Below the pieces are notes generated by a model that saw nothing but the letters and a program-made list of their open reading frames with translations, was not told where the DNA came from and ran no database searches. The position numbers and the translations under genes were made by a program. Positions 5,659 through 8,674 of a stretch of DNA of 47,930 bases are shown in pieces. Position 1 is the stretch's first letter; each line of letters opens with the position of its first letter. Origin of the DNA: Patescibacteria group bacterium (GTDB lineage Bacteria > Patescibacteriota > Patescibacteriia > Patescibacteriales > UBA12075); contig JAYENK010000019.1 in NCBI GenBank assembly GCA_034722035.1, forward strand, positions 1 through 47,930, given 5' to 3'.

Positions 5659-6615
5659 TTAAATTTTTTCGACTGCTCTTAGCTTAGCGCTACGACTTCT
5701 TTTGTTATTTTTTATTTCCTCCAAACTAGGCGTAATAATTTTTTTGTTTAATATTTTTACTCTTTTTGTATGACCACAACGACAAGTGGGTAATTCTTTT
5801 GGACAAAGACAGTGCTTACTTTCATCTCTAAAAAAATTCTTGACGATTCTATCCTCCAGACTATGAAAAGAAAGCACTACAATTTTTCCACCTTTTTTGA
5901 TATTATCAAGTCCACTTTTCAAAGCTGTCTTTAAAGCATTTAATTCATCATTAGTCTCAATCCGAAGCGCCTGAAAAGTTTTAGTGGCAAAATGAATTTT
6001 GGCATGACGATATTTTCCGGGAACAGCTTCGGCAATAATATCTACTAACTCTTTAGTAGTTTTTATTTCTTCCTCTTCTCTTGCTCTAATTATCGCTTTA
6101 CTAATAGAATTGGCGTATCTTTCTTCGCCATAGTCCCTTATTACTCTGAACAATTCTTTAAACTTATATTTATTGACTATCTCGGTAGTAGCTACAACAT
6201 TATCTACATCCTTGGAAAAAGCCATGTCTAGCGGAGCATCCAGCTGAAAAGAGAATCCACGACGCCGGTCGGCAAGCTGATTCGATGATAGCCCCAGATC
6301 AAAAACAATGCCAGATATTTTTTTGCCTATTGTAAATATCTCCTCTTTTTTAAAAATATTTGATAAATTTTGAAAATTTTCATGATAAAGAACGATATTT
6401 TTAATCTTCTTTTTATTTATTATAACTTGATTATACTTAATTGCTTTCTCATCAGCATCAAGCGCGATTACAAGACCTTTTGCTCCTACTTTTTTCGCAA
6501 TGTCGTAGGTGTAGGCGCCGCCGCCAAGAGTGCAATCAATAATAATTTGCCCTTTCTCCGGACGCAAAAATTCCAAAACCACGTCAAGCATAACCGGAAC
6601 ATGCTGGTTTTCCAT
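5659..6615 (-). CDS. rsmH: 16S rRNA m4C1402 methyltransferase
   Basis: HVPVML, DCTLGGG, FDLGLSS, FQALRIETNDEL, SFHSLEDRIVK, RSRSAKLR. ATG at 6615 preferred over the track start at 6627. Confidence 0.96.
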   Translation of the reverse strand: MENQHVPVMLDVVLEFLRPEKGQIIIDCTLGGGAYTYDIAKKVGAKGLVIALDADEKAIKYNQVIINKKKIKNIVLYHENFQNLSNIFKKEEIFTIGKKISGIVFDLGLSSNQLADRRRGFSFQLDAPLDMAFSKDVDNVVATTEIVNKYKFKELFRVIRDYGEERYANSISKAIIRAREEEEIKTTKELVDIIAEAVPGKYRHAKIHFATKTFQALRIETNDELNALKTALKSGLDNIKKGGKIVVLSFHSLEDRIVKNFFRDESKHCLCPKELPTCRCGHTKRVKILNKKIITPSLEEIKNNKRSRSAKLRAVEKI

Positions 6616-6855
6616 ATTATAAAACAAGCGCTCGTGAACGCATTAAAACTACGCTCTTAAGTTCTTCGTTGTTAACAAATGGCGCTTTGATAATCCTTAC
6701 TCTTAGTTTTTCGATTATTTTTTGGTTTTTGGTTTTTGGTTTCACTTTGATCATTTTATATTTTTATTTTTATTTTTGGTGAGAAGCCATTTTGGCAAAA
6801 CCATTCTGACGCCAAGAACTAAATAATTTTTCTTCTATATTTGCCTTCTTATAAC
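6616..6855 (-). ncRNA. Candidate structured cis-RNA between mraZ and rsmH
   Basis: Nested long-range pairings 6843-6855/6616-6629, 6814-6820/6660-6666 and 6809-6813/6681-6685, plus local hairpin 6636-6656; G-U pairs work on the minus strand. Confidence 0.4.
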
Positions 6856-6934
6856 TCATTTGAAACAATGAACTAATAATAAAATATTATAAATAATAGT
6901 AATATAAACACCTTCATTCTTAATTCTTAATTGA

Positions 6935-7366
6935 CTACACTCCAAACTCCCCCAAACCTTCTGCAATAGAGTTTGATTCTTTTTCACTACTTTCTTTGTA
7001 GTTATTCCATTTGTCTTCATCCCAAAGCTCCAAGCGGTCGTACAAGCCGGCTACTACCAGTTTTTTTTTCATGCCGGAAAAATTACGCAAGTATTCGGGA
7101 AGCATAACTCGTCCTTGCGAATCTAAATTGAGATCCATGGCTCCGGCTAACATGTGTCTGGCATAAGCTCTTGCCTTGGCTTGACTTTTCGGTAGCTGGG
7201 CGTACTTTTTAGCTTCTTCTGCAAATTCTTCTTTTGGATACAAAAACAAACAGTTGTCTAGCCCTTTGGTTACAACTGCTCCTTGCTTAAGTTGAGCGCG
7301 AAACTTAACCGGAATCGCAACTCGCCCCTTATCGTCAATATTATGATGATATTCTCCGATAAACAT
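6935..7366 (-). CDS. mraZ: Division/cell wall cluster transcriptional repressor MraZ
   Basis: MFIGEYHHNIDDKGRVAIP, GLDNCLFLYP, LDSQGRVMLP, RLELWD. Confidence 0.97.
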   Translation of the reverse strand: MFIGEYHHNIDDKGRVAIPVKFRAQLKQGAVVTKGLDNCLFLYPKEEFAEEAKKYAQLPKSQAKARAYARHMLAGAMDLNLDSQGRVMLPEYLRNFSGMKKKLVVAGLYDRLELWDEDKWNNYKESSEKESNSIAEGLGEFGV

Positions 7367-7797
7367 ACGTTATCACGCTTCGCGTGAGCCCCTCTACGAA
7401 CAGGGCACATGCGAATGATTATTATAAACCACAAACGCAGATGTTGGGAACATCTGCGCATGGGGGTTCTAATGTTAAATGCTTATACATTAAGCACGAC
7501 AAGCATGGTAACTAATAATTTGATTTTTCACTAAGACTCAAGAGGAGACTGATCGACCGCTCGTTTTAAAAGCTAGTGATCAAACCCCTTCTTCGCCTTA
7601 ATTGTAAGAATGCATCCCCATGCATTTATTTTTGTTTTTGTTTTTGTTTTTGCAACTAGCGCGAATTGTCTTGGCTAGTTATTTTTTATTTTTGTTTAAT
7701 TTTGTTTTTTGTTTTTAAATTTATATAAAAATATAAACTTCAATTTTACATTCGCATGTCCCGTATTCGTAGTGTGGGTCGGCGTAGCCGATAACAC
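7367..7797 (-). ncRNA. Large structured RNA (or inverted-repeat-bounded element) filling the mraZ 5' leader
   Basis: ~50-nt imperfect terminal inverted repeats including a perfect 11 bp (7749-7759/7407-7417), at least six internal hairpins, G-U bias to the minus strand, no credible ORF. Confidence 0.65.
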
Positions 7798-7858
7798 CAC
7801 TTTTCCCCACTTATCACCAATCTAACTTCATTATACTCCACATTCTACCATAAGTCAA
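7797..7858 (-). promoter_or_regulatory. mraZ/dcw promoter with MraZ-type GTGG boxes
   Basis: Minus strand TTGACT (7853-7858), 17 nt, TATAAT (7830-7835). 10-nt periodic boxes ATGGtagaat-GTGGagtata inside the promoter and TTGGtgataa-GTGGggaaaa-GTGG downstream, matching known MraZ operator architecture. Confidence 0.85.
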
Positions 7859-7907
7859 CACCTCTCTGCCCATTATTTAATAACTAATATTAAAAAAATT
7901 ATTAAAT

Positions 7908-7939
7908 AAAAAAACCTGATAATACTATTATCAAGTTTT
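7908..7939 (-). terminator. Probable intrinsic terminator after tsaB
   Basis: Minus strand AAAACTTGATAAT-agt-ATTATCAGGTTTT followed by further T. Confidence 0.6.
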
Positions 7940-7998
7940 CTGTTAATAAACTATATAAATTGATGTGTAAAACTCACTATTTTATAAAAGTCGGACTT

Positions 7999-8373
7999 CT
8001 ACAAAATATCGTTCTTGGCCACTGTTATATTTGGCTCTTTGTCGTAAAATGGCTTAATTAATTCTCCGTTACTAAATTTTAAGGTCTTGCCCTTAGTCCC
8101 TTTAATTGGAATATTTTTGGCATAAGATAAGGCATTGGCAATGCTAACCACTAATCTTAACGCAGAAAAGCTGATTCCGGTATTATTAACTTGAATTTCG
8201 GTAATATCATCTAAACCAAGCTTATTTTTCTTTAAAATCTTATCCACAGCCGGTAAAAATTGCTCTGCTTGTTCACGTAAAGCCTTAAATTCGATTTTAT
8301 CAATTATTTTATTATTATTTTTTAATTGAATAATAATTTGCTCTTCATCCGGAGCCGATAAATATAAAATCAT
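7999..8373 (-). CDS. tsaB: Short TsaB-like t6A biosynthesis protein (N-terminal domain only)
   Basis: QAEQFLPAVDKIL...LDDITEIQVNNTGISFSALRLVVSIANALS resembles the TsaB GPGSFTGLRIG region; only 124 aa. Confidence 0.72.
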   Translation of the reverse strand: MILYLSAPDEEQIIIQLKNNNKIIDKIEFKALREQAEQFLPAVDKILKKNKLGLDDITEIQVNNTGISFSALRLVVSIANALSYAKNIPIKGTKGKTLKFSNGELIKPFYDKEPNITVAKNDIL

Positions 8374-8383
8374 ATATAAAAAT

Positions 8384-8674
8384 CTATTCGTCTAATAAAT
8401 TTGTTCTAAATGAGCTGGATTGCAAACGCAAAATCATCGCCTGCTGAGAATCCAATTTTTTATTTGTCTGCGCTTGCTCATTAATTAATCTTAAATTCTG
8501 AATTTCAAGGCCAGTTATTTGATTGCTTGTCTCTTCAATTTTGGAAAAAATAAAACTAGCGTACACACTCGACGCTAGCACTAAAAATAAAACCACTAAT
8601 TGCAACCAAAGCATTAAAGCAATGTGTTGATTTTTAAATAAAAAACGCTTGCTTAATTTTGAAAATAATCGCAT
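8384..8674 (-). CDS. Hypothetical single-TM coiled-coil protein
   Basis: 96 aa, hydrophobic segment ~19-42, then Q/L-rich heptads. Confidence 0.65.
   Translation of the reverse strand: MRLFSKLSKRFLFKNQHIALMLWLQLVVLFLVLASSVYASFIFSKIEETSNQITGLEIQNLRLINEQAQTNKKLDSQQAMILRLQSSSFRTNLLDE

Follow-up and report, generated by a model that had tools for sequence, protein, structure and literature searches.

In the window, by which the whole stretch of 47,930 nucleotides of Patescibacteria DNA analysed here is meant, a near-consensus promoter is separated from the start codon of mraZ by several hundred nucleotides of strongly structured sequence, and the question is what this intervening region represents. 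The initial annotation had proposed an undescribed large RNA, cis-regulatory or excised, forming a 430-nt unit closed by its own ends. From the results described below, an undescribed, structured and conserved RNA between the distal promoter and mraZ can be retained, whereas the closed 430-nt unit cannot. With a probability of roughly three in four, two unrelated components are combined in the region, namely a conserved mraZ leader RNA and two recently inserted copies of a dispersed repeat. The locus comprises the following features.

5659-6627, minus strand: rsmH/mraW, next after mraZ (Pfam MraW PF01795, 341.2 bits)
6935-7366, minus strand: mraZ (Pfam MraZ PF02381, 125.5 bits)
7795-7820, minus strand: three MraZ-box-like direct repeats, TTGGTGATAA / GTGGGGAAAA / GTGGTG, at 10-nt spacing directly 3' of the -10 element
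7830-7858, minus strand: sigma-70-type promoter TTGACT-17-TATAAT (score 11/12)
7999-8373, minus strand: next upstream gene, ending at 7999 (124 aa; only a partial TsaD family profile match, 29.9 bits)

The ATG of mraZ is located at 7366-7364 in minus-strand reading. Within 6800-8500, TTGACT-17-TATAAT at 7858-7830 is the top-scoring promoter-like site, such sites as a class not being enriched in this interval (8 found versus 7.0 expected). As noted initially, a credible ORF is missing between this promoter and mraZ: the longest one has 63 aa, and coding potential of the leader was dismissed, as an ORF starting from an AUG inside hairpin B (described below) would show no conserved length on reading the alignment. 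Promoter and boxes are kept 5' of the leader RNA in relatives (blastn, query positions 13-76), and a regular expression for promoter and boxes matches 35 of 41 leaders. The repeats at 7795-7820, also kept in relatives, form an array of direct repeats with helical spacing at the mraZ promoter and thus have the appearance of an operator. They resemble the direct repeats AAAGTG[T/G] constituting the MraZ site in Mollicutes, so that a putative MraZ site can be predicted; MraZ boxes are also described for E. coli (PMC8475190). The likeness consists in three GTGG[T/G]-type direct repeats at about 10-nt spacing in the promoter of the mraZ operon; the difference is a gene lying about 430 nt downstream with a structured leader in between. 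MraZ operators had initially been remarked to be usually close to the gene; here, the boxes are near the distal promoter and the gene is about 430 nt further downstream. Their position directly after the distal -10 element fits this promoter being the operon's own. The upstream gene at 7999-8373 (minus strand) may perhaps encode a short TsaB-like protein.

On the mRNA strand, the ends of the region pair as initially described, with GTGTTA (7797-7792) facing TAACGT (7372-7367) directly 5' of the ATG and, further inward on the minus strand, CTACGAATA (7772-7764) facing TGTTCGTAG (7402-7394) and ACATGCGAATG (7759-7749) facing CATTCGCATGT (7417-7407). Local hairpins at 7779-7791 and 7373-7387 are likewise present, as are interior hairpins at 7654-7680, 7609-7626, 7532-7600, about 7481-7495 and 7435-7459. 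The four-way junction assigned to the ends is not recovered: in the minimum-energy fold, about 42 pairs join them into a single long, imperfect rod, and the two local hairpins represent an alternative fold to this rod. Folding of 7364-7800 against shuffles gave -139.3 kcal/mol (z -10.35) for the mRNA strand versus -123.4 kcal/mol (z -5.38) for the opposite strand, none of 100 shuffles being as good on either strand. A strand signature of G-U pairs in the mRNA corresponding to A-C mismatches on the other strand had been noted for the mismatches checked initially. A strand bias is located in the interior, where the mRNA strand reaches -83.5 kcal/mol (z -5.8) and the other strand -69.1 kcal/mol (z -2.3). 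The end-joining duplex, however, shows no such asymmetry (-55.9 kcal/mol with two G-U pairs on the mRNA strand versus -55.0 kcal/mol with one on the other), so that the strand argument fails for the ends.

Conserved structure and covariation in relatives were borne out for the interior, at about 7420-7750, in which the following modules can be distinguished.

7681-7749, minus strand: A/U-rich hairpin and A-rich linker with CAAAAA-type runs (predicted fold)
7654-7680, minus strand: hairpin A, CUAGCC AAGACAAUUCGC GCUAG, with conserved loop (helix 1 of the covariation test)
7609-7626, minus strand: hairpin B with near-invariant core GCAUGGGGAUGC (alignments)
7528-7603, minus strand: rod with a purine-rich, near-invariant 5' strand UUAAGGCGAAGAAGGGGUUUGAUC and a pyrimidine-rich 3' strand (helices 3 and 4)
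7494-7504, minus strand: GCUUGUCGUGC motif, kept in part of the family (regular expression matching 21 of 41 leaders)
7425-7466, minus strand: terminator-like hairpin GCGCAGAUGUU-CCC-AACAUCUGCGU followed by UUGUGGUUU and preceded by CCCCAUGC (flagged by the site scan)

In an initial DNA search, the interior together with the promoter and its boxes was matched in many relatives, with a MraZ homologue following in 15 of these loci. A covariance model of the interior (R1; 173 positions, 29 pairs) matches the window at 7525-7684 with 128.7 bits and finds one locus per genome in all 25 genomes of the family; within the order, 64 of 151 sampled genomes from 16 of 26 families are matched, and among 147 genomes from other orders of the class there is no match. 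MraZ is encoded directly downstream of all 46 R1 loci inspected (41 genomes), i.e., the RNA occupies the constant position of a cis-regulatory leader. Across 48 leader sequences, 95.3% of the cells are paired versus at most 52% with slid partners, 19 of the 29 pairs have changed on both sides and none of 500 shuffles reaches any of the five measures, these counts coming from alignments fitted to the models' own structures (as also for the repeat described below); in an independent MAFFT alignment of 16 sequences, seven compensated pairs are already found. All seven stem pairs of hairpin A have changed on both sides in the 48 sequences, and in rod helices 3 and 4 this holds for 9 of 18 pairs, with 96% of the cells paired. 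The order of modules common to the leaders is promoter with boxes, A-rich linkers, hairpin A, hairpin B, often a variable hairpin, and the rod. The exact string CATGGGGATG from hairpin B occurs in 27 of 41 leaders, and the 5' strand of the rod (UUAAGGCGAAGAAGGGGUCUGAU) is nearly invariant, the rod tip being variable. A-rich linkers recur in relatives; the sequence of 7681-7749 itself is not conserved. Eleven genomes carry a tandem pair of leader motifs before one mraZ (G004, G005, G006, G008, G018, G029, G041, G043, G048, G053, and G060).

When scanning one genome per GTDB species with a 20-nt rod pattern, 92 stretches were obtained and 80 of these were fetched. R1 matches 43 of the latter, with titles referring to Candidatus Falkowbacteria (12), Parcubacteria (7), Patescibacteria group (10), an unnamed bacterium (3) and uncultured Gammaproteobacteria (11), and the remaining 37, distributed over many phyla, show no R1 match and fit chance. 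The 11 R1-matching entries designated as uncultured Gammaproteobacteria are L154, L160, L164, L171, L182, L193, L196, L200, L203, L211, and L216; several of them share identical bit scores with genomes of the order, for which reason their titles look wrong. In the literature searched, supplements aside, no mraZ leader RNA was found to be described for these bacteria; the motif lists of comparative-genomics papers are placed largely in such supplements. On the basis of comparative sequence data, the conserved leader qualifies as a credible, good candidate for a new family of cis-regulatory RNAs confined to a single Patescibacteria order.

Downstream of the rod, the leaders diverge. Homologs of the terminator-like hairpin with changed stems are present in six other leaders from about four further genera; in these, the GCUUGUCGUGC motif is followed by a hairpin of the form GCGCAGAU-loop-AUCUGCGY and a U/G-rich tail, the stem tops varying by genome. 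Between rod and ATG, terminator-like sites were detected in 10 of 35 leaders compared to 1.9 expected from shuffles. In other lineages, the rod ends 16-35 nt 5' of the start codon. The 8 nt directly 5' of the terminator-like hairpin (CCCCAUGC) are complementary to GCAUGGGG of hairpin B, both sides being invariant, and when the interior is folded without the repeat copies at its ends, the best predicted fold makes use of this long-range helix. A conserved sensor-like core combined with an output that varies is typical of riboswitches and of leaders that bind proteins, which supports cis-regulation. A second promoter-like site, TTCCCA-18-TATAAT (7450-7421, minus strand, 10/12), overlaps the terminator-like hairpin, and a start from it would fall at the edge of the 3' repeat copy. 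Judging from its sequence, this site could provide mraZ with a start of its own, the upstream RNA then being a separate transcript.

The ends of the region are of different nature. A DNA search of the bacterium's own genome revealed that both arms of the end-joining duplex, and nothing else of the element, recur on many contigs.

7750-7795, minus strand: 5' arm, short-stem copy of a 47-nt dispersed repeat, forward in the mRNA (nhmmer E 5.3e-12; covariance model R2, 43.6 bits, L085)
7369-7416, plus strand: 3' arm, long-stem copy of the repeat, reverse-complement in the mRNA (nhmmer E 1.4e-13; R2, 76.2 bits)

In the repeat unit of 46-48 nt, GTTAT is followed by a stem of 5-6 bp carrying a TTC loop, by a second stem of 4 bp enclosing CTACRAAT, and by ACATGCGAAT. 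The two arms belong to different subtypes, with a short stem in the 5' arm and a long stem in the 3' arm, the latter ending 2 nt 5' of the mraZ ATG. Arm-to-arm complementarity amounts to only 78%, in contrast to 92% identity of the 5' arm to the copy at C29:9778-9826 and 93% identity of the 3' arm to the one at C10:7140-7193. Hence, the ends are complementary far above chance because they are inverted copies of one repeat family. In the own genome, iterated nhmmer searches give 20-21 matches, 16 of them near full length, and covariance model R2 gives 18. Across 41 related genomes, the copy number found with R2 ranges from 0 to 125, with 10, 125 and 23 copies within one genus and 31, 1, 5 and 2 within another; such a patchy, expansion-prone distribution is typical of the spread of a selfish or mobile repeat. 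The stems of the repeat covary as well (97.1% of cells paired versus at most 66% with slid partners, 8 of 10 pairs changed on both sides; 49 copies from 24 genomes). As short imperfect palindromes with many dispersed intergenic copies of variable number, the arms show the characteristics of REP/REPIN-type elements. As far as our searches show, this family is apparently undescribed in these genomes, the literature search not having covered the repeat.

Among the 41 related mraZ leaders, copies of the repeat are present in five and the inverted pair only in the present one. Assemblies from sequencing run X4 and its companion runs (DNA contigs from a single study, one run possibly being the window's own source) include a 676-nt contig which, at 16 differences over 304 aligned letters 5' of the arm, is about 95% identical to the window and in which 7741-7796, comprising the 5' arm, is replaced by 19 unrelated letters before the leader continues. 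Other X4 contigs cover the 3' arm, and contigs of other repeat copies break off at 7369 and 7416, leaving loose ends there. A second joint in run X4, connecting 7366 to 7578, was discarded because its evidence is too weak (side of 26 letters, depth 3.2). In all four runs, contig depth within the A-rich linker at 7679-7719 is in the thousands; the linker is of low complexity and common to many organisms, which renders depth there meaningless. The proposed 430-nt unit closed end to end is consequently not a conserved entity; 40 of the 41 related leaders do not contain the inverted arm pair. At the level of the strain, the 430-nt loop-out is a side effect of the repeats having inserted.

From this composite, the following course of events may be proposed. 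The leader core, made up of hairpin A, hairpin B and the purine-rich rod, would be transcribed from the distal MraZ-box promoter, and its most likely role is the control in cis of expression of mraZ and the division operon behind it, with a sensor domain and an output that varies between lineages. In the present genome and the nearest genera, the output would be the hairpin with U-rich tail, able to trade pairing with hairpin B, as in attenuation. Of the two repeat copies, inserted in opposite orientation, one would have entered directly 3' of the MraZ boxes and the other at 2 nt from the ATG on its 5' side; the resulting helix would connect transcript position +28 (approximately) with position -3 relative to the start codon, so that the entire leader is enclosed. 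For this arm duplex of about 42 bp in the transcript, a neutral or mildly modulatory effect is probable. The genome encodes RNase III at C5:24423-25082 (TIGR02191, 240.7 bits versus a cut-off of 166), and the 42 intermolecular pairs predicted for the arms exceed the duplex length of at least about 20 bp typical of its substrates. The arm duplex is thus a possible RNase III target; if cut, the leader would be released and only a very short 5' end would remain on mraZ.

An alternative is that the whole 430-nt structure including the closing helix represents one evolved unit, cis-regulatory or excised. The stability of the helix (-55.9 kcal/mol) and the z score of -10.35 for the whole fold would be accounted for, as would the presence of RNase III and the location of all three inverted repeat pairs of the genome directly upstream of a start codon. 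It is nevertheless very unlikely, and largely refuted as far as a conserved unit is concerned, as the arms derive from a family with 0-125 copies per genome, are closer to copies elsewhere than to each other and lack a strand bias, the pair is found in no other of the 41 leaders, and a contig about 95% identical exists without the 5' arm. Still less credible, with a chance close to nil, is a miniature inverted-repeat transposable element (MITE) spanning all 430 nt and carrying the interior as cargo: terminal inverted repeats of about 47 nt and GT on both outer flanks, a possible 2-bp target duplication, are compatible with such an element, but the interior is single-copy in the genome and orthologous to armless leaders at the same locus in all relatives, only the 5' arm is absent from the X4 contig, and solo arms are the commoner form of the repeat in this genome.

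The reading as a stand-alone small RNA, trans-acting or housekeeping, which would extend from the MraZ-box promoter to the hairpin at 7435-7459 and leave mraZ to a proximal promoter, is improbable but the one to be taken most seriously among these alternatives. The terminator-like hairpins in 10 of 35 leaders and the promoter-like site at 7450-7421 argue for it, and in the absence of a 6S or SRP match to Rfam in the genome one housekeeping RNA is unaccounted for. In several lineages, however, the rod approaches the ATG to within 16-35 nt, leaving no room for terminator and promoter, and the presence of MraZ boxes identifies the promoter as that of the operon itself. Moreover, the variable rod tip does not provide a conserved apical loop, RNase P RNA and tmRNA are encoded elsewhere in the genome, and the 87 of 151 genomes of the order without a motif match also lack an SRP match, so that there is no complementary pattern.

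The search for known RNAs agrees with the initial failure to assign the element to an established family. In a scan of the window with Rfam 15, only a tRNA (1873-1943) reached the gathering score, and at E<=10 the section 7200-8100 yielded four weak matches, all below half of the respective family's gathering score. RNase P RNA has been located upstream of mraZ in Pelagibacter, according to a table in PMC2704228, for which reason this identity was tested here; it was rejected, since RNase P RNA is found at C33:8041-8497 and likewise elsewhere in four relatives. The tmRNA, at C40:450-845, can be dismissed in the same manner. For 6S RNA and for small- and large-type SRP RNA, no Rfam match was obtained in the own genome (G000), and the small bacterial SRP model matched none of the 25 family genomes and none of the order's 151 genomes, 114 of which are of high quality. 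As this applies to genomes with or without the leader motif, it does not point to an SRP RNA identity of the leader; in this order, SRP RNA is either very divergent or missed by the first-look filter. Owing to the lacking complementary pattern and the variable rod tip, an SRP or 6S identity of the leader was set aside and kept as a low-odds rival only.

Two bolder readings are both quite unlikely, namely that the leader senses ribosome state and that the 47-nt units are mobile cassettes selected or targeted to sit directly before start codons. With respect to the former, the leader could report free 30S or the status of the 16S 3' end to an operon encoding the 16S methyltransferase RsmH and division genes. 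The near-invariant purine strand of the rod (AAGAAGGGGUCUGAU) is complementary to the anti-Shine-Dalgarno tail, and the opposite strand (GAUCAGCCUCCUCUU) imitates this tail within the family, its anti-Shine-Dalgarno-like sequence not being conserved outside it. The 16S rRNA of the bacterium (C30, minus strand) keeps the canonical anti-Shine-Dalgarno tail. In G000, the Shine-Dalgarno core motif is present at -18 to -5 of 26 of 450 ORFs (>=250 aa) versus 21 of 450 in a control zone, and G is depleted and A enriched before starts. A mimic of 16S helix 45 was rejected, as the own 16S 3' region is unlike hairpin B and the tail-like strand of the rod is not kept beyond the family.

Concerning placement of the repeat, all three inverted pairs in the genome are built alike, with a short-stem copy upstream and, after 45, 80 or 333 nt, a long-stem copy abutting a start codon. 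In relatives, an ORF of at least 60 aa starts no more than 8 nt from the GTTAT end in 6 of 27 copies, versus 2 of 27 at the other end. A forward copy directly 3' of MraZ boxes is also present in three genomes of another family. The uniform layout of the three pairs and these forward copies suggest that placement is perhaps not random. A role of the repeat combining a Shine-Dalgarno sequence with a bridging hairpin is weakened by the genome showing no Shine-Dalgarno use. A link to RAYT/Y1 transposases was rejected as well: Y1 transposase (PF01797) is present in four of five high-copy and three of five zero-copy genomes and absent from the own genome, only 2 of 13 Y1 loci have repeats nearby, and no correlation results, although incomplete assemblies could conceal such a gene. 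A UUCG tetraloop as strand marker of the repeat was given up, since the loop is a 3-nt UUC/GAA and therefore uninformative; G-U versus A-C patterns among the copies, as read by eye, are mixed.

With regard to known systems, orphan candidate leader motifs of riboswitch or protein-binding type have been collected by comparative genomics (PMC5737381 and related work). The mraZ leader shares with these a covarying structure on the coding strand upstream of one gene family, a lineage-variable downstream part and tandem duplicates in some genomes; it differs in having no Rfam family and in lying behind a promoter with the operon's own repressor boxes, an arrangement that would give two control layers. 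In most bacteria, the gene cluster for division and cell wall starts with the mraZ promoter, whose control, to our knowledge, has so far been ascribed to MraZ binding to DNA. A conserved structured RNA of 150-250 nt between promoter and mraZ in a Patescibacteria order (Candidatus Falkowbacteria and Parcubacteria titles) points to a second, RNA-level control step of cell division in tiny genomes with few regulators. The mraW RNA motif of Actinobacteria, an Rfam family, is likewise a structured RNA at the start of a division and cell-wall gene cluster, from which the leader is set apart by lineage and by the lack of a match here despite the presence of that family in the library scanned.

As for the arms, the REP/BIME and REPIN elements of proteobacteria are short imperfect palindromes, intergenic, single or in inverted pairs and also found inside operons. 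The arms are similar in being dispersed short palindromes with very different copy number between close relatives; they differ in the two-hairpin unit, in the Y1 (RAYT-type) link not being found and in the position of many copies at start codons instead of gene ends. Correia elements of Neisseria are inverted-repeat elements contained in transcripts and cut by RNase III. Inverted repeats beside genes and a long co-transcribed duplex of predicted RNase III type are common to both cases, but in the present case 333 nt of resident conserved RNA lie between two 47-nt units that are separate from each other. For readings made from sequence alone, the locus is a caution in that two small mobile-repeat copies can yield a strong long-range helix with a z score near -10. 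The frequent location of the repeat against start codons of housekeeping genes leaves targeting and selection as alternative causes.

The mraZ leader seems to be an insertion hot spot. In leaders L060 and L062, several hundred nucleotides with an ORF are inserted between leader RNA and mraZ, flanked by inverted AAGAAT/ATTCTT-rich arrays, and L061 and L068 contain short tandem arrays of ACGAAT and GAATTAT type in inverted blocks. In G000, copies of the 47-nt repeat filling intergenic spacers are C42:25675-25722, C36:57021-57066, C9:8802-8849, C10:7142-7189, C29:9870-9917, C1:21237-21283, and C29:15589-15652. Among these, copies reach to within 0-2 nt of the start codon in the case of secF, typA/bipA, an HIT gene, infB, and rpsL, and further ones are situated 1-2 nt 3' of the groEL and rpsJ stops. 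The copy at C30:7444-7490 is upstream of the 16S rRNA gene, placed on this contig only by its 3' end and a spurious antisense ORF, and may belong to the rRNA leader. On contig C14 (24012-24458 and 24884-25057), an ORF for a LAGLIDADG endonuclease (Pfam, 44.5 bits) and one of the inverted repeat pairs are about 430 nt apart.
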